Shown piece after piece: positions 2,039 through 23,408 of a stretch of 64,000 nt of DNA (positions are counted from its first letter, which is position 1; every line of letters starts with the position of its first letter). The translations under genes and the position numbers were made by a program. Origin of the DNA: an uncultured Planctomycetota bacterium. Lineage in GTDB: Bacteria > Planctomycetota > Planctomycetia > Isosphaerales > Isosphaeraceae. The DNA is taken from contig CAWJTV010000026.1 in assembly GCA_963845755.1 (NCBI GenBank), forward strand, positions 32,001-96,000, in the 5' to 3' direction. The notes below the pieces were generated by a model that saw only the letters and a program-made list of their open reading frames with translations, was not told where the DNA came from and made no database searches.

Positions 2039-4404
2039 ATGGAATCACCACCAGAACGCGCTGTGCCCCGTCTCGACGTGAGATTCCTGGCCGGGCTGAT
2101 CCTGGTCGCGGTGGTCGCGGTCCTGGCGATGAATGCGACCAGGCGGGTGGCCGAGCTTCCCAAGGAGACGGCGCAGGACGTCTCAGTGCATCGATCGGAA
2201 ACCGCCCCGAATGCCGCGGTGACCCCCGCTGATGCCGCTCGAAACCTCGTCGTCTCGCGGCGGGAGATCCGGAAGGGACTGGCGTATCAGCCGCGTAAAC
2301 CGATGGATACCAGCGCCTTCTACTCGGCCCTGGCGCACCTCGCCGCTGGCCGAATACCGCCTCGCTGGAAGACATCCGGGATAGTTGGAAGAAAGTTGAT
2401 GGGTGGATGGGCGTGGAGCTGGACAGGGCCCTGCCCCCTCCCGGCAAGTCGGATTCGCACCGGCTGCTGATCCTGCTGTCGAAGGCCAGTCTCCTCAACT
2501 TCCAGGGGGAACCGAAGCGCGCCTACGAATTGCTCGAAGAGACGCGGTCCTGGGTCGAGCAGAGTGACGGGCTCGCCGAGCTCGGCCTGTTCACCGTCAT
2601 CTACTTCCAGGGAGTGACCGGGCTGCGGCTGGGCGAGACCGAGAATTGCGTGAAGTGTCGGGGCGAGAGCTCGTGCATCATCCCCATCGCGCCGGCGGCC
2701 GTTCACACCATCCCCACCGGCTCCCGCCTGGCGGTCCGGCATTTCACCGAGTATCTCGAGCAGTTCCCCGACGACCTGGGAATCCGCTGGCTGCTCAACC
2801 TGGCCCACATGACCCTGGGCGAGCATCCCCAGAAGGTCGATCCGCGATTCCTGATCGCCCTGGACCATTTCGTCAAATCCGAGCTCGACATCGGCCAGTT
2901 CCGCGACATCGGCCACCTGGCGAAGGTCGACCGGCTGAACATGGCCGGCGGCGCGGTGATGGACGACTTCGACGACGACGGCCGGCTCGATCTGGCCACC
3001 ACCAATTTCGACCCGGCCGAGCCCATGGCCTATTACCACAATACCGGCGACGGGACCTTCCAGGATCGTAGCGAATCGGCCGGCCTGGCCCCGCAACTGG
3101 GGGGCAAGTATCTGGTGCAGACCGATTACAACAACGACGGCCGGCTGGATCTGTTCATCTCGCGGGGCGCGTGGTTCTTGTTGCCGATCCCGCAAAGCTT
3201 GTTGCGCAACGAGGGCGGCGGCAAGTTCACCGATGTCACGAAAGAGGCCGGGCTGGGCGCGCCGATGAATTCGACGTCCTCGCGCTGGGCCGACTACGAC
3301 AACGATGGCTGGCTGGACGTCTTCATCGTCGGGGAACGGCCGGCGGACCGCCTGTATCACAACCGGGGCGACGGGACCTTCGAAGACGTCACCGCCAAGG
3401 CCGGCCTGAGGAAGAGCGGCCCCTTCTTCGGCAAGGGGGCCGACTGGATCGACTACGACAACGACGATTATCCCGACATCTTCATGAACAACCTCACGGG
3501 GGACCCGAAGTTATATCACAACAACCGCAACGGGACGTTCACCGAGGTGACCAAGTCCATGGGGATCGACGGCCCCCGCAAAGGTTTCGCCTGCTGGGCC
3601 TGGGACTACGACAACGACGGCTGGCTCGACCTCTTCGCGACCTGCTACGACTACACGCTGGAGGACGTGGTCAACGGCCTGATCGGGAAGCCGCACAAGG
3701 CCCTTTCAAACCGGCTCTTTCGCAACGTGGGCGGCAAGCGATTCGAGGACAAGACGAAGGAAGCCGGCCTGGATCTGGTCTTCGCCACCATGGGCAGTAA
3801 CTTCGGCGACCTCGACAACGACGGCTTCCTCGATTTCTACCTGGGGACCGGCGACCCGGATTTCAGCCTGCTCGTCCCCAACCGGATGTTCAAGAACGTC
3901 GCGGGCCGGCGCTTTGCCGAGATCACCGGCTCCTCCCGGACGGGCCACCTCCAGAAAGGACACGGCGTCTCCTGCGCCGACTGGGACAACGACGGCGACG
4001 TGGACATCTTCATCGAGATGGGGGGCGCCGTCCCCGGCGACCGGTACCACAACATCCTGTTCCAGAACCCCGGCCAGGGGAACCACTGGCTGACCGTGAA
4101 GCTCGTCGGCCAGAAGACGAACCGGGCGGCCATCGGTGCCCGGATCAAGGCCGTCACGGCGGGCGAGACGCCGCTGACGATCCACCGCCACGTGTCCTCC
4201 GGCGGCAGTTGGGGAGCGAACCCGCTCCAGCAGCAACTCGGCCTGGCCAAGGCCGAGAAGGTTGCGACCCTGGAGGTCCACTGGCCGGTCAGTAAGACGA
4301 CCCAGGTCTTCCGCGACATCGCGGCCGATCAGACCATCGAGATCACCGAACTCGCCCCGGACTTCAAGAAGCTGGATCGGAAACCGATCCCGGCGCCGAA
4401 ATGA
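2039..4404 (+). CDS. CRTAC1-like FG-GAP/VCBS repeat protein with C-terminal ASPIC/UnbV domain (N-terminus frameshifted near 2340-2410)
   Basis: Repeated DYDNDGWLD motifs; NHWLTVKLVG..TNRAAIGARI and LGL..VATLEVHWP ASPIC/UnbV signature; the TM anchor is encoded in the upstream frame 2039-2470. Confidence 0.85.
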
Positions 4405-17017: not shown

Positions 17018-19525
17018 ATGTCGAGTCGGACACTTTGGGTCCTGGGCGCAGTCTGTGCCCTATCCTTGGGCCTGCTGCTGGTCTCGGGCCAGATGGGCGC
17101 GAGCCTGTGGCACCGGAGTTCGGCACCGCCGGTCGGGTCGGCCCTCCCCTCCCCCTTCGAGGCAAGGACCGAAGCCACTACGTCGCCGGACCGGCAGTCC
17201 CCGGCCGGCTCCGGCTGGGCTCCCGCGCTGGATCCGAGCGACAACCCGGACCCGAAGGCCGACCTCACGCTAGGCAAGGACCAGCGCGAATACCTCTGGC
17301 AAGTCGAGCATCATGGCCTGGTCCTGAGCCGGCTGGGTTTTTCCCGGATCGCCAAGGCGCTGAAGGACGACGATCCGAAAGCCTTCCTGTCCCTCTGCGC
17401 CGAGGGGTTCGCGGGTGAGGTGCCGGGCCATCCGCGTGAAGTCCGGTTCGAGCACGATGCGACCCGGCTCCTCCGCCAGAGGGATTCCGGCCAGCCGTCG
17501 GTCCGGCTGGACCGCCAGGCGATGATCCTGCGCCTCTTCGAGGACCGCCGCCGGTTCACCGGCCGGCCCAACGTGAAGCTCGCGCTCATGGGGCTCGCGC
17601 CGGTCGACTACAAGGACCTGGACGGGATCTGGCAAGGGACGTGCCAGCTCCGGATGTCCGGCGAGATGGGGGCGGGACGGCCCGGCGAAGTGGTCCTCTA
17701 CCTGCAATATCGCCTGCCCAGGCCGACCGAAGAGCTCCTGAAGTCCGACGGCTGGCTCCGCTCCTGCGCGATCACGCAGCGCCAGGTTGCCGAGGCCCCG
17801 CGATTCCTGATGCACGAGGTCGCCGCCCGGCGCGGGATCGACGTGAAACCGTTCCACGACAACTGGAGCACCCCCGAGGATACGCAGATCGTCTCCGGCG
17901 GCGTCAACCTCTGCGACTACAACCGCGATGGCTGTCTCGATATGCTGGTCACCGACGTGGCCACCAACGTGCTCTATCAAGGTCAACCCGACGGCACGTT
18001 CGCCGACGTCACCAGCCAGGTTCGCCTGCCGCAGATCCCCACGATGATCACCGCGACATTCGTCGACCTCGACGGCGACGGCTGGGAAGACCTGATCTAC
18101 GGCAGCCTGCTGCTTCGTAACCACGAAGGCCGATACTTCGCGCCGGTCGACACCCCGACCCTCTCCGTGCGCCCCCAGGCCAGCGTGGCCGTCGCCGACT
18201 ACGACCGGGACGGCAAGGTCAACCTGTACGTGACCTATATCGGTTTGACCAAGGCCGCGACCTGGATCAAGGGCGAGGGGGGCGGACAGGTGCACAACCG
18301 GCTGTGGAGGAACCTGGGGAATTGGAAATTCGCCGACGTTACCGAATCCAGCGGCGCCTCGGGGGGCAACCGGTTCGACCTTCACCGCGATCTGGCTCGA
18401 CGCCGACGAGGACGGCTGGCCCGATCTTTACGTGATCAACGAGTTCGGCGCGGCGTCCTCCTCGTCAATCAGGGGAATGGAACGTTCCGCGAGCAGTTGA
18501 TCGAGGACGATCCTGGCGACTTCGGCTCGATGGGGGTCACGGCCGGCGATTTCGACAACGACGGCCACATCGACATCTACGTGGCCAACATGTACTCGAA
18601 GGCTGGCAACCGGGTGATGGGTAATCTCTGGCCGGGGTCGTATCCGGATTCGATCCTCGACAAGCTCCACTCGTTCACCAAGGGGAGCCAGTTGCACCAC
18701 AACCTGGGCGGCCTGAAGTTCGAGCGGATCGGCCGGGACCTCCAGGTGGCGGACGTCGGCTGGGCGTATGGCCCGGCGATGGCCGACCTGAACAACGACG
18801 GCTGGCTCGACATCTTCGCCACTTGCGGGTTCATCAGCCGCTCCCGCGACGATCCCGACGGGTGAAACTGCGTGTGGCAGGCTGTCGTGTCACAGCCTTT
18901 CAACCGCGGAGCTTCGGTACCGGCACCCGGTGCGGTCGACTCGTCCCTCGGCGAGTTCTGGGTCACCAACCCCTGGGACATCGTCGACAAGGGCCACAAC
19001 CTGAGTGCCTACGAGCGCAAGCGCGCGTTCCTCAACGTCGGGGGTACGGGTTTCGTCGATATCAGCTACCTGACCGGCGCGGATAGCGACGGCGACGGCC
19101 GCTCGGTGGTCGCCGGCGACTTCCGCAATGACGGCCGGCTCGACCTGGTACTCCGGCAGGTGGGCGGCGGGCCGCTCCGGCTCTTCGAGAACCAGTTCCC
19201 GAAGGCCCACTATTTGACCGTCTCGCTCCGCGGCCGGGCGAGCAACCGGCTCGGGATCGGGGCGCGGGTGACCGCAACGGCCTCGGGACGCACGCAGACC
19301 CGAGAGCTTTATCCTCATAACAGCTTCCATTCCCAGATGGCCAGCCGCCTGCATTTCGGCCTGGGCGACGCCACGCAGATCGATCGGCTGACCGTCCGCT
19401 GGCCCTCCGGCGCCGTGCAGACGCTCGAGAACCTGGCCGCCGATCGCCATGTGATGATCACCGAGGGACTGGCCGGAACCTACGCCCTCGAGACGGTGAC
19501 CCCCGGCCGGCTTATCGCACCGTGA
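17018..19525 (+). CDS. CRTAC1-like FG-GAP/ASPIC-UnbV protein with in-frame TGA at 18863-18865 (candidate selenoprotein)
   Basis: ORFs 16664-18865 and 18872-19525 share one frame; FG-GAP repeats on both sides of the TGA; ASPIC/UnbV tail; short compensated frameshift at about 18375-18450. Confidence 0.75.
18879..18898 (+). promoter_or_regulatory. Candidate bacterial SECIS hairpin
   Basis: AGGCTGT-CGTGTC-ACAGCCT: perfect 7-bp stem, 6-nt loop with G at loop position 2, 20 nt between the TGA and the loop. Confidence 0.55.
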
Positions 19526-19600: not shown

Positions 19601-21208
19601 GTGCCGATTCGCGAATCCGGAGATATCGACGCCATGATAGGTTTCTTCCAACGGCGCAAGGCCCTGTCGCAGGCTGCCGTCTTGCTGCTGGGAGCGATAC
19701 TGGGTCTCCTGGCTCGCGATCTGACGATGCCGACACGAGGTGACGATAGCTCCAGGACGAGCGACGATCGTGGGATGTCCCAGCCTCGGGAAGGGTCGCA
19801 CCTGGCCCCGGATACGGCCGCCGCCTATGCCCCCGACTGGGATCGCCCCTATCCTCAGTACCAACCGGTCGGCACGGTCCTCAAGCCCATGCCCCGGCTG
19901 AAGCCGGGTGAGATCTGCCCCCAGGATCTTTCCCCCTTCGGCGGGGCGGGTCATACCTCGTACAGCGCCCTCGACGACGTGGGCGACTTCGAGAGCTTCT
20001 GCCGCATGTGCAAGGAGAACAAACCCCGGCTCATGGAGGAACGCCGCAAGTACATGGAGCAGCGGTATAATTTCAGCGCCGCCGTGACCCGCGACGTGAC
20101 CATGACCCGCGGCAAGCCGCTCCCCGTCGGGCCAGTCGCGCGATTGCCGAAGGAGATTGCCAGTTGGAGCGAGCTGGCCGGGCTGGCGCCGGCAGAGATC
20201 CTGCGGCGCGACCTGTTCCCAATCGGCTTCCGGCCGCTCTCGCATCCCATGCATACGGTCGGCCACCAGCTCTTTCCAGCGATCTGGATCAAGTTTCATC
20301 CCGAACACGAGCGGTTCGACGTCGATTTCGACATCCCCGATCCCTACCTGCCCGAGTTCCCACCCCCGCTGTTCCTGACCACGCGTCCGGACCTGGGCGA
20401 CGTCTCGCGCGGGCATGAGATCACCCAGGCCAACTTCCGCGAGCTGTTCGAGGGGATCCTCACCCCGGAGCAGCTCGAGGGGCTGCGATTGCTGGTCACC
20501 AAGTTTCCCACAACCTGGTTCAATCAAACGAAGCACCGGGTGACCGAGAAGCCGATGCGGGGTACAGCCTGCTTCGATTGCCACGTTAACGGACATACCA
20601 ACGGCGCGATCGCGCTCGATCCGGGCACGCGGCCGACGCTGGCCCGAACGCGGACCGACACGCCCACTTTGCGCGGCAACCATAACATGCAACTGTTCAG
20701 CTCGCGGCGCTCGATTCGTTCGACCGACCATTTCGCCGAACTGGAGGAATACTTCGATGGCGATATCAGCCTTCAGCTCCAGCTCGGCGGCCGGCAGCTC
20801 GACAAGCCCAGCACGAACCGAATGGGCGATTTCAATTCGATCATCGCCTGGCCCCCGGCGTCGAAGCTGGATCGGTTCGGCCGCCTGATCGCGGCGAAAG
20901 CGACGCCGTCAGAGTTGCGCGGCGAGGCCCTCTTCTTCGGCAAGGCGCGCTGCGCCGCCTGCCACCCGGCCCCGACCTATACCGACGACAAGATGCACGA
21001 TCTCCGCGTCGAGGAGTTCTACCATGGCCGCGCCGAAGGCTGGATCAAGACCTTCTCGCTCCGCGGCATCAAGGACTCGCCACCGTACTTCCACGACGGC
21101 CGGCTGCCCACCCTCGAGGATACGGTCGAGTTCTTTAACCTGATCCTCGACCTCAAACTGGCCGATCCGGAGAAGACCGATCTCGTGGCGTTCCTGCGGC
21201 AGCTCTAA
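19601..21208 (+). CDS. Di-heme cytochrome c peroxidase/MauG-like protein
   Basis: CFDCH and CAACH heme motifs, DTPTLRG, LRGIKDSPPYFHDGRLPTLED; N-terminal TM; start may be near 19632. Confidence 0.85.
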   Translation: MPIRESGDIDAMIGFFQRRKALSQAAVLLLGAILGLLARDLTMPTRGDDSSRTSDDRGMSQPREGSHLAPDTAAAYAPDWDRPYPQYQPVGTVLKPMPRLKPGEICPQDLSPFGGAGHTSYSALDDVGDFESFCRMCKENKPRLMEERRKYMEQRYNFSAAVTRDVTMTRGKPLPVGPVARLPKEIASWSELAGLAPAEILRRDLFPIGFRPLSHPMHTVGHQLFPAIWIKFHPEHERFDVDFDIPDPYLPEFPPPLFLTTRPDLGDVSRGHEITQANFRELFEGILTPEQLEGLRLLVTKFPTTWFNQTKHRVTEKPMRGTACFDCHVNGHTNGAIALDPGTRPTLARTRTDTPTLRGNHNMQLFSSRRSIRSTDHFAELEEYFDGDISLQLQLGGRQLDKPSTNRMGDFNSIIAWPPASKLDRFGRLIAAKATPSELRGEALFFGKARCAACHPAPTYTDDKMHDLRVEEFYHGRAEGWIKTFSLRGIKDSPPYFHDGRLPTLEDTVEFFNLILDLKLADPEKTDLVAFLRQL

Positions 21209-21446: not shown

Positions 21447-22352
21447 ATGGCACGGATCACACTGGGCGCGGATCGATTCGACGCGGAGGCCAGCCGGGCG
21501 GAATATCGCGGGCTGGAGATGGGAGATATCCTGTATTTCCCGGTCTCGCCACCTCTGCTCTCCGAGCCGGACCGGGCGTTCCTGGTCACGCAGAAGCAGG
21601 TCAACGCCGCGTATCACAAGAACGTCAGTTATCGTCCGCTGGAGGATCGCCTCAAGGGGGTTGACCAGGACGACGCGGCGCAGCGCGAGCGGGTCCACGG
21701 GATCATGCGTGGCTACTCTCAACGGGCGATCGCCTTCATGTCAACGTTGTTGAACCGGTATGCGACGAGCTGGAAGATCGACTTCGCCAGCTTCCGGCCG
21801 ATCGAGGAGGAAGGGCGTCAGGTCTCGCTGCACTCGCGGAACGACTTGCTGCATTTCGATTCGTTCCCGACCCGGCCGTCGTACGGCGATCGCCTGCTGC
21901 GGATCTTCACGAACATCAACCCGGAGCGGCCGCGGGTCTGGCTCACCACGGACCACTTCGAGGATCTGGCCGGCCGGTTCGCCGAACGGGTCGGGCTCCA
22001 TCGCCGGCCGGGTGCGCTGGAGACTTGCAAGCACTGGACGGTCCGGGCCGCGGCGAAGCTCGGCTTGCCGGTGGTTGACCGGCCGCCGTACGATCGGTTC
22101 ATGCTCCGGATCCACCACGCGATGAAGGAGGACGCCGGCTTCCAGCAATCGTGCCGCAAGGACCGCTGGGAGTTTCCCGCCGGCTCGACCTGGATCGTCT
22201 TCACCGACAGCGCCAGCCACGCTTGCCTGAGCGGACAATATATGCTGGAACAGACCTTCATCGTCCGCAGGTCCAGCCTGACCTGCCCCGAGAAGGCCCC
22301 GATTGCGATCCTGGAGAAGCTCGCGGGCCATCCGCTGGCCCGCAGCGCGTGA
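21447..22352 (+). CDS. Kdo hydroxylase (KdoO-like) family dioxygenase
   Basis: KNVSY, ASFRPIEE, LLHFDSFPTRP, RLLRIFTNINP, FPAGSTWIVFTD..SHA..SGQYMLEQT. Confidence 0.8.
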   Translation: MARITLGADRFDAEASRAEYRGLEMGDILYFPVSPPLLSEPDRAFLVTQKQVNAAYHKNVSYRPLEDRLKGVDQDDAAQRERVHGIMRGYSQRAIAFMSTLLNRYATSWKIDFASFRPIEEEGRQVSLHSRNDLLHFDSFPTRPSYGDRLLRIFTNINPERPRVWLTTDHFEDLAGRFAERVGLHRRPGALETCKHWTVRAAAKLGLPVVDRPPYDRFMLRIHHAMKEDAGFQQSCRKDRWEFPAGSTWIVFTDSASHACLSGQYMLEQTFIVRRSSLTCPEKAPIAILEKLAGHPLARSA

Positions 22353-22394: not shown

Positions 22395-23408
22395 ATGAGC
22401 CGGACGTCGTTCGTCGCGATCATGACCCTCTCGGCAGGACTGACCCTTTCCGCGGACGCGCCGGCCCAGCGCGTGTCGCCGGACGTGAAGGTCACGAACC
22501 CCCGAGCCTACGACGTCACCATCACCACGACGTTCGTCGTGCCCGAGCACGGAACGACGCCGACTCATCTGGGGGTCTGGCACGCGCTGCCGAACGCACG
22601 ACCCTGGGACGGGCAGGACCGGACCCTGGGTGCCTCGGCGATCGCCTACCGGCCGGAAACCGGTCATGTGGTGCACCTCGCCAGCAACGAGTCGCAGAGC
22701 GTCTTCTGGGAAACCCGCGAGCGGCTGAAGCCCGGCCAGAAACTCGAGTTCGTCAGTCGCTTTCGCGTCCGGTCGGCGGATCGCACCTTCGACCCCAGCA
22801 AATCGACCGCCCGCTGGTCCGATTATCATCGCCGGGTTGGTGAGAACCCACCCGAAGTCGGCGGCGACCTCGCCGCCCTCGTGGACGCGATCAAGAAGGA
22901 CCATCCCCCCGCCGAGGCGGCGCTCGCGTTCTGCAAGTGGATCGCCGGCCACATCGAGTACGACGCCTCGGTTCCCTATGGCCCCCGCGATCTGGCCGCG
23001 ATCCTCGCGCAGAAGAAAGGCCACTGCGGCCACCAGATGACCCTCTTCGAGGCCATGTGCGCGCGAGCCGGGATCCCGACGAGACCCGTCCTGGGATTGA
23101 ACTTGTATGCCCCCGACGGCGTCGGCTCGCTCCACAAGATCCGACCCGATTTCGAGAACCAGCACACGTGGGTGCAGATCTACCTCCCCGGCTCGGGCTG
23201 GGTCGAAATCGACCCCGGCGCCGGTCCGAAAGCCTACACGATCCCGGCGCAGCTCATCCAGAACAGCACGGATTTCCAGAACTATGTCATCTGGATCCGC
23301 GAAGACGGAACCTGGAAGCAGCCCGACTGGGAATATCGCGACGGGAAATGGTTTTCCCCGTACTCCATCGAAAACCGCAGGACGTTCCGGCGGGTCGAGA
23401 CGAGGTAA
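22395..23408 (+). CDS. Secreted transglutaminase-like protein
   Basis: Signal peptide; GHC...MCARAGIPTR...HTWVQIYLPG.GWVEIDP (Cys-His-Asp triad). Confidence 0.85.
   Translation: MSRTSFVAIMTLSAGLTLSADAPAQRVSPDVKVTNPRAYDVTITTTFVVPEHGTTPTHLGVWHALPNARPWDGQDRTLGASAIAYRPETGHVVHLASNESQSVFWETRERLKPGQKLEFVSRFRVRSADRTFDPSKSTARWSDYHRRVGENPPEVGGDLAALVDAIKKDHPPAEAALAFCKWIAGHIEYDASVPYGPRDLAAILAQKKGHCGHQMTLFEAMCARAGIPTRPVLGLNLYAPDGVGSLHKIRPDFENQHTWVQIYLPGSGWVEIDPGAGPKAYTIPAQLIQNSTDFQNYVIWIREDGTWKQPDWEYRDGKWFSPYSIENRRTFRRVETR

Follow-up and report, generated by a model that had tools for sequence, protein, structure and literature searches.

The window analysed here is a 64,000-nucleotide stretch of a contig from an uncultured planctomycete of the family Isosphaeraceae (GenBank assembly GCA_963845755.1, contig CAWJTV010000026.1, positions 32,001 to 96,000 of the forward strand). 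It contains an FG-GAP/UnbV gene at 17018..19525 in which an in-frame UGA codon at 18863 is very probably recoded to selenocysteine (Sec), making this, as read from its sequence, one gene for one selenoprotein. The TGA is conserved among relatives and is followed by a constrained, covarying hairpin, the machinery for Sec is encoded in the genome and the protein has a recognisable fold, each of these being a computational result. That the UGA encodes Sec had been proposed in the original prediction, made from the letters of the window, and is now supported by the conserved TGA, the covarying hairpin, the Sec machinery and sequencing reads. The features on which the argument turns are given below (SECIS, selenocysteine insertion sequence; positions are those of the window).

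17018..19525, + strand: putative selenoprotein gene, whole; 835 codons plus a terminating TGA at 19523-19525
18863..18865, + strand: in-frame TGA, read as selenocysteine (U616 of 835)
18863..18895, + strand: codons U-N-C-V-W-Q-A-V-V-S-Q, with the lowest synonymous change in the gene; a helix begins at the Sec in the model of an orthologue
18868..18909, + strand: SECIS-like element with a conserved 6-bp upper stem (18880-18885/18892-18897) and apical loop CGUGUC (18886-18891)

Conservation of the in-frame TGA

The ATG at 17018 was taken as the start of the gene, in agreement with the N-termini of two orthologues (L020 and L021). The TGA at 18863-18865 lies in frame between an open reading frame (ORF) that runs from 16664, or from 17018 if the ATG is used, to 18865 and a second ORF at 18872..19525, and it joins both into 835 residues, with the read-through peptide ...SRSRDDPDG-U-NCVWQAVVSQPF. 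Two same-frame ORFs split by a TGA were what had first drawn attention to this gene, and their coordinates and reading were reproduced. Pfam matches to FG-GAP_3 lie before the TGA and a match to UnbV_ASPIC (PF07593, E 2e-24) after it, and a paralogue at 2407-4404 has FG-GAP and UnbV in a single ORF; the Pfam and ORF results thus agree with the earlier view that the UnbV domain is downstream and that both domains form one polypeptide in this paralogue. TGA is also the usual stop in the window, being used by 6/9 of the ORFs checked, including the end of the selenoprotein gene itself. Since TGA is an ordinary stop here, the code is the standard one and the decoding of the TGA at 18863 must be local. 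No second Sec-type copy was found in the window's own genome by tblastn with the 220-residue junction, which returned the gene itself and two weak stop-free matches.

Orthologues were sought in six-frame translations of 121 genomes from the window's own family (Isosphaeraceae), which yielded five full-length orthologues with 51-75% identity and one that was fragmented, with a TGA inside each (6/6). In the six full-length sequences, that of the window included, the TGA occupies one column within the invariant peptide PDG-U-NCVWQAVVSQP. A wider scan, using one genome per species, added seven closer relatives (one Isosphaeraceae metagenome-assembled genome (MAG), one Gemmataceae MAG, two Planctomycetota, two Verrucomicrobiales and one Akkermansiaceae MAG) together with four more-distant ones, and all 11 aligning loci have a stop at the column, which is always TGA. 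A metagenome scan produced 11 loci only, and TGA is present in each of the four that reach the Sec column; locus L133, which ends before this column, was excluded from the counts. In a sample of Planctomycetota all 29 newly cut loci likewise have TGA at the column. It had been suggested at the outset that homologues be inspected for a kept TGA, and it is kept at every one of the 51 sites read (22/22 + 29/29) in Planctomycetota and Verrucomicrobiota, with TAA or TAG never seen. Because the TGA is shared by relatives, a private nonsense mutation is ruled out.

The same pattern is found in larger collections. A profile covering both of the subfamilies described below matched 108 of 401 sampled Planctomycetota genomes, with up to eight copies each, and among the ~150 matches listed 133 contain exactly one TGA, 15 have no stop, one has two TGAs and one has three. 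Among the best 150 of 1.84 billion representatives in a protein database, 72 are ORFs with their C-terminus at query residues 612-615, ending ...PDG, and four begin just past the Sec point, whilst in a search of 90%-identity clusters 97 of the 120 listed proteins end at the Sec column. Proteins ending at this column are named 'hypothetical protein', 'FG-GAP-like repeat' or 'HEAT repeat protein', and none of those inspected among the 120 listed 90% clusters is named 'selenoprotein'. From the TGA to the next potential start, the codons show synonymous or conservative variation (TGC/TGT; GTG/GTC/GTT/CTC), as in translated sequence.

In our alignment the Sec column is common to two subfamilies, here called the window subfamily and the sister subfamily, which also share the place of the hairpin, the insert in which the Sec lies and the exported propeller. 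U-x-C is found in 24/25 sequences of the window subfamily, whose members have an NTF2-like domain towards the N-terminus, continue for ~200-220 residues beyond the Sec and lack a thioredoxin domain. The sister subfamily (L061, L065 and 21 sampled loci), by contrast, has the motif U-S-F-[FY]-W with no Cys at +2, a GGUCG loop and a stem placed 3 nt earlier, and its proteins are much extended at the C-terminus, where they carry a TlpA/AhpC-like thioredoxin domain, in some cases together with TPR. WxxWCxxC was found in 10/21 of the sister-subfamily loci, which were cut at 1.5 kb, and the Sec of this subfamily lies outside the fused redoxin domain. The U-x-C motif noted originally in the window gene therefore stands for the window subfamily and does not extend to the sister subfamily, with its U-S-F.

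Two further arrangements were observed. At locus L044 (G054:C474, position 2584 and the downstream gene) there are two tandem FG-GAP/UnbV genes with one in-frame TGA each, the first of which reads ...NQDDL-U-LPFINGAV, carries a GGUC-loop hairpin and represents a third motif type, with no Cys at +2 and no thioredoxin domain. Database proteins P0197, P0205, P0212-P0220, P0243 and others are ~800-residue N-terminal pieces that end at the Sec column and have HEAT/armadillo-type repeats before the propeller, and these appear to be another architecture of the same Sec family.

A covarying hairpin downstream of the TGA

The hairpin begins 13 nt past the TGA and consists of the arms AGGCTGT (18879-18885) and ACAGCCT (18892-18898) around the loop CGTGTC, so that the perfect 7-bp hairpin reported earlier at this distance was recovered with the same sequence and coordinates. 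Its seventh pair (18879/18898) is an extra one in the window copy, and there are less conserved lower pairings at 18875-18877/18900-18902 and 18868-18872/18905-18909. A 50-nt segment of the window folds with -20.1 kcal/mol (z -2.24, 3/200 shuffles equally good). Folding energy alone is weak to modest evidence, and it is conservation that carries the argument. When 14 orthologues were aligned by codon, the lowest synonymous diversity among 468 windows of 11 codons (0.172; median 0.50) is in the one that starts at the TGA, and the codons for A-V-V-S are GCT GTC GTG TCA in 13/14 orthologues.

RNAalifold gave one compensatory pair on an early hairpin set, and covariation was settled once sampling was widened beyond 17 near-identical hairpins. 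Among the 23 distinct sequences of the window subfamily pairing holds in 98.6% of cells, both sides change in 3/6 pairs (1/500 shuffles) and the covariation score is 0.167 vs 0.101 (reached by 0/500 shuffles), whilst in the sister subfamily every cell (100%) is paired, both sides change in 9 cells (0/500) and the score is 0.285 vs 0.125 (0/500), all figures that carry the tool's own warning that kin sequences may outscore shuffles without any structure. Double-sided changes of the stem in the window subfamily include GGUCGC/GCGACC, GGCUGC/GCAGCC and GGUUGU/ACAACC. A control in which the pairing partner was slid gave 12-69% paired vs 99-100% at the true register, in agreement with a structure. 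Conservation and covariation of the hairpin had been named as a check on the Sec proposal, and both were found, in two subfamilies.

We also applied a bSECIS-like rule, which requires that a stem of 5 bp or more begin 11-18 nt from the U of the UGA and that the loop have 3-10 nt and a G within its first two places. This rule is passed at 50/51 TGA sites (21/22 + 29/29), compared with a background of 14.4% of 10,149 other codon positions in the same genes, and at the paralogues that have a sense codon in the Sec column 6/15 pass and 9/15 fail, with only two in register. As a side observation, L178 (G492:C104:12753-13331) and L183 (G226:C24:26362-26937) have Glu/Asp at the Sec column, yet carry a 6-bp stem and 5-nt loop in register; these hairpins may be relics of recent Sec loss.

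The sister-subfamily loop is GGUCG in 17/29 loci and resembles the GGUCU loops that follow the TGA of the two fdhA genes of the window's own genome. Compared with these fdhA elements, the G-U of the window subfamily is 2 nt further from the UGA. In the E. coli SECIS the corresponding landmarks are G23/U24, with an 11-nt spacing. The window gene has in common with genes of the E. coli fdhF type an in-frame UGA, a short stem within ~11-15 nt, a G/U-containing apical loop and selA/B/C/D in the genome; it differs from them in that the window-subfamily loop is CGUGUC and not GGUC(U), and in that SelB is only predicted to bind it. A search of 18780-18980 against Rfam (E up to 10) returned no SECIS family, and gave two chance-level matches (a microRNA and an internal ribosome entry site). 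An alternative hairpin, UGUGGCA/UGUCACA, was considered and dropped, as it needs GUG at codon +3, which is present in 3/14 orthologues.

We propose that the conserved hairpin 14 nt downstream of the UGA (6-bp GGCUGU/ACAGCC; loop CGUGUC, in which positions 2-3 are G-U) would act as a bacterial SECIS of the kind present in E. coli fdhF, bringing SelB·GTP·Sec-tRNA(Sec) to the ribosome.

Selenocysteine machinery, assembly quality and competing explanations

The genome comprises 14.27 Mb in 49 contigs and is 87.9% complete. Its sel genes had been singled out as something to look for, and SelA (406 bits), selD (376 bits), a tRNA-Sec (78 bits) with anticodon TCA and SelB were all detected, selB (G000 C29:294598-296489) in three pieces in different frames that correspond to model positions 2-231, 236-351 and 404-579. 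We take the frame pieces of selB to reflect an assembly error. The SelA match reaches position 331 of 367. Across the family, SelA occurs in 8/8 genomes with the TGA form vs a background of 85/121, and it was found in 9/10 further carriers. Two fdhA genes of the same genome (C9:260614 and C47:113294) have an in-frame TGA (...T-U-H...) and fdhF-like hairpins with GGUCU loops, and are bona fide selenoprotein genes of this genome.

Reads had also been proposed as a means of confirming the TGA, and short-read contigs from two soil-metagenome runs of one study (X2 record 11 and X3 record 14) show both the TGA and the hairpin without difference. The assembly of the gene itself is affected at one place upstream of the TGA:

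18374..18452, + strand: out-of-frame stretch between one inserted base (near 18374) and one lost base (near 18450)

Residues ~453-478 (~26 codons, one FG-GAP blade) are out of frame here, and the +1 frame matches the orthologues (…STFTAIWLDADEDGWPDLYVINEFG). A further short-read contig (X2 record 9) has one base fewer at 18374, and since it lacks the extra base the first indel is an assembly error; the indel near 18450 is outside the coverage of the near-identical contigs. Assembly error is the most likely source of the out-of-frame stretch as a whole. Two indels that offset each other within the selenoprotein gene fit the earlier remark that the other breaks in genes of this window are indels.

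Several observations weigh against Sec insertion. Folding energy is unremarkable for 7/8 of the hairpins tested (z +0.31 to -1.72), and the first covariation test, on the 17 near-identical hairpins, was not significant (128-494/500 shuffles as high). One orthologue (L140, metagenome contig, 3602-3646) keeps the peptide, and five synonymous changes in it break 2/6 stem pairs, with failure of the bSECIS-like rule. SelA was not detected in carrier genome G121, which may be incomplete, the three-piece selB could be a broken gene, and the short-read runs possibly derive from the window's own source sample. The residues found in place of Sec point the same way. The 15 sense-codon paralogues have Glu (6), Asp (2), Arg (3), Ala (2), Gln (1) and Asn (1) at the Sec column, and 23 read-through database proteins have Ser (4), Ala (4), Asp (3), Glu (3), Leu (2), Cys (2) and others; one of these two Cys is a shifted alignment, and the other comes from a singleton 197-residue fragment in a read-level catalogue, its codon not seen. 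A Cys form was not found in metagenome contigs with a back-translated DGCNCVW pattern either. Cys homologues had been expected under the usual Sec/Cys criterion, and this criterion fails, with Cys in 0/15 paralogues and one clean Cys, the singleton fragment, among the 23. Either Cys is unable to do the job, or the sense-codon paralogues have lost the function.

Were the UGA to terminate translation in a conserved split gene, the C-terminal blade and the UnbV domain would be made by re-initiation at GTG 18872 or at the loop GUG (18887-18889), with the hairpin serving for coupling. Gene callers do call a second ORF from ~residues 622-625 (P0061, P0086, P0088, P0103), and the loop GUG is retained in 13/14 orthologues. 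Such an arrangement is nevertheless very unlikely. Codon 18872, at which re-initiation had been considered in the original prediction, is GTG in just 3/14 orthologues and GTC, CTC or GTT otherwise, and the supposed stop is TGA throughout the 51 sites, with no TAA or TAG among them. Moreover, the seven or eight codons from the stop to the loop GUG evolve in the manner of coding sequence and have homologues among the residues that sense-codon relatives translate, the junction segment forms one helix within a single domain in the model, and the sister-subfamily equivalent of the GUG sits in the 3' part of the loop/stem amid different surrounding codons. Read-through of the UGA without selenium, whether a near-cognate tRNA, helped by the hairpin, inserts one of the standard amino acids (Trp, Cys, Arg or Gly) or the recoding is of some other kind, would suit the practical absence of Cys forms and the varied residues of the sense-codon relatives, so that the identity of the residue might matter little. 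If any residue served, however, a sense codon would be cheaper, yet TGA is kept in >130 genes; SelA is present in 17/18 carrier genomes, the loops and spacing resemble the fdhA SECIS of the same genome, and the hairpin is mostly absent from the sense-codon paralogues, as their performance under the rule indicates, all of which makes this a highly improbable explanation.

The window copy could, finally, be a pseudogene created by a nonsense mutation, an alternative that had also been raised originally and to which the pair of mutually offsetting indels, with ~26 residues of one blade scrambled between them, would lend some colour. The conservation of the TGA contradicts it, the codon being ancestral and not private. 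The short-read contig without the extra base at 18374 shows at least one lesion to be an assembly error, other genes of the assembly are frame-broken too (SelB, and SelA with its match to 331 of 367), and the part downstream of the TGA is open and highly conserved. We regard a pseudogene as extremely unlikely.

Predicted protein, related systems and neighbouring genes

With Sec inserted at 18863, the product is predicted to be an exported or membrane-anchored protein with the following parts (pLDDT, predicted local distance difference test).

17018..17092, + strand: N-terminal hydrophobic segment (MSSRTLWVLGAVCALSLGLLLVSGQ), signal peptide or membrane anchor
17261..17830, + strand: NTF2 / ketosteroid-isomerase-like alpha+beta domain, approximate; AlphaFold2 pLDDT 90.9
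17885..19250, + strand: CRTAC1-type FG-GAP beta-propeller, approximate; the insert that bears the Sec interrupts it
19253..19450, + strand: UnbV_ASPIC domain (PF07593), from Pfam

The AlphaFold2 model of orthologue L020 (pLDDT 85.7, predicted template modelling score 0.85, from a 23-row alignment) consists of an N-terminal helix (3-29), a low-confidence linker, the alpha+beta domain, the propeller and a beta-rich C-terminal domain. The linker is probably disordered (pLDDT <50 for 23-84), and the N-terminal domain, when modelled alone, matched NTF2-fold chains in Foldseek (E 1.5e-5 and weaker). The propeller matches PF13517 (FG-GAP_3) with E 4.8e-35. Helix 619-628 of the model begins with the Sec, which lies within a propeller insert of ~45 residues bearing the motif PDG-U-x-C-[VL]-W, an insert that is entirely absent from the paralogue at 2407-4404 (27% identity). 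The top solved match of the model in Foldseek is murine CRTAC1 (9etn_A; E 1.1e-22, TM 0.67 by target, 592 columns). No thioredoxin-family Pfam domain was found in the window selenoprotein, and zero NCBIfam models match it. Vertebrate CRTAC1 (9etn) and bacterial ASPIC/UnbV FG-GAP proteins share the fold with the window protein, which has FG-GAP_3 and UnbV_ASPIC above cut-offs, whilst sequence identity to CRTAC1 is 16%. We know of no selenocysteine in CRTAC1 or in bacterial ASPIC/UnbV FG-GAP proteins.

The Sec may be the residue that reacts in an extracytoplasmic site for redox chemistry or metal binding. In the window subfamily it would pair with the Cys two residues later as a selenenylsulfide couple, and in the sister subfamily it would work with the fused TlpA-like thioredoxin domain. 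The basis here is a contrast of two clades: because the two subfamilies differ in this way, the Sec can be taken as redox-active, and its resolving thiol would come from Cys +2 in the one case and from the fused domain in the other. We consider this redox-couple reading of the protein chemistry possible, though somewhat short of an even chance. A rather unlikely but more far-reaching idea is that the Sec arose at, or exchanges only with, non-thiol residues (mostly Glu/Asp, also Arg, Ala and Ser) in an insert of a CRTAC1-like propeller outside the cytoplasm, and would thus be a new kind of Sec site at which Cys is an unworkable substitute. The selenolate would then be a soft-metal ligand or a nucleophile, partnered by Cys +2 in the window subfamily, and in some planctomycetes a conserved di-haem MauG-like neighbour might serve the Sec site. 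There is only a very slight chance that, in a bolder version, the di-haem enzyme makes a protein-derived cofactor from the invariant U-x-C-x-W by cross-linking or oxidation.

Selenoproteins with UxC are known in other folds. Table 1 of Zhang et al. (2026; PMC13188914) lists UxC in Thioredoxin-like selenoprotein Sec.2 and in the SO_0444 family Cu/Zn efflux transporter, and the motif therefore occurs in redox and metal-handling selenoproteins alike; the Sec-Cys spacing of these catalogued families is shared with the window subfamily, but the folds are unrelated and no homology is implied. Selenoproteins of the thioredoxin fold (UxxC / CxxU) differ in that the window U-x-C is at the start of a helix within a propeller insert. 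The FG-GAP/UnbV family (PF13517, PF01839, PF07593 or by name) is absent from the 119 families of that Table 1, and the terms FG-GAP, ASPIC, propeller, VCBS, Planctomyc and Verrucomicrob have 0 occurrences in the main text of Zhang et al. (2026) and 0 in the deep-Sep paper. The S9 Table of Kim et al. (2016; PMC4807772), by contrast, contains four 'ASPIC UnbV; FG-Gap' selenoprotein candidates from planctomycetes that were called as two genes, of which 3/4 were positive with bSECISearch and for which the closest non-Sec match has Gly at the aligned residue. These candidates resemble the window gene in domain composition, split gene calls, planctomycete hosts and a non-Cys aligned residue, whilst they form a four-row list without analysis, which we compared by the gene identifiers and labels of the table. 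The original description of the gene as not belonging to a classic selenoprotein family is thus borne out by the 119 catalogued families, with the addition that the S9 Table had listed such genes. A literature search found no paper on a bacterial FG-GAP/UnbV/CRTAC1 selenoprotein, bioRxiv supplements and subscription-only papers being outside its reach. As far as these sources go, the mechanism is a textbook one and the family is in print only as supplementary candidates, neither analysed nor catalogued; the window gene is a further member, in a subfamily with its own architecture and motif.

The family is widespread and barely documented. Gene-annotation pipelines split these genes in two, and because they cut at the Sec codon the selenoproteomes of Planctomycetota and Verrucomicrobiota are undercounted. 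An exported selenoprotein on a non-thioredoxin scaffold with practically no Cys forms is contrary to the common view that Sec sites come from redox-active Cys, and the family provides clean positives for predictors of SECIS elements and of selenoproteins.

Directly downstream of the selenoprotein gene lies the gene for the di-haem protein referred to above.

19601..21208, + strand: neighbour gene of 535 residues with an N-terminal hydrophobic helix and haem c motifs CFDCH (324) and CAACH (451)

Its similarity to MauG/CCP/MbnH is sub-threshold only, and the label 'di-heme peroxidase-like' given to it originally is fair but weak: the two CxxCH motifs are there, and the relationship to MauG/CCP stays below threshold. 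The di-haem gene is 73-82% identical and adjacent in L021, L022/L053, L024 and L134, convergent in L140, and absent from the flanks of L020, L023 and L054-L059; where present, it is more conserved than the selenoprotein itself. A functional unit of the two proteins is a speculative possibility.

Further along the window there is a Kdo hydroxylase gene at 21447-22352 (PF11004, E 4e-90), followed by a transglutaminase-core gene at 22395-23408. Kim et al. (2016; PMC4807772) describe a transglut_core gene within the Sec-insertion operon of planctomycete P2, and the parallel with the window is probably a coincidence.

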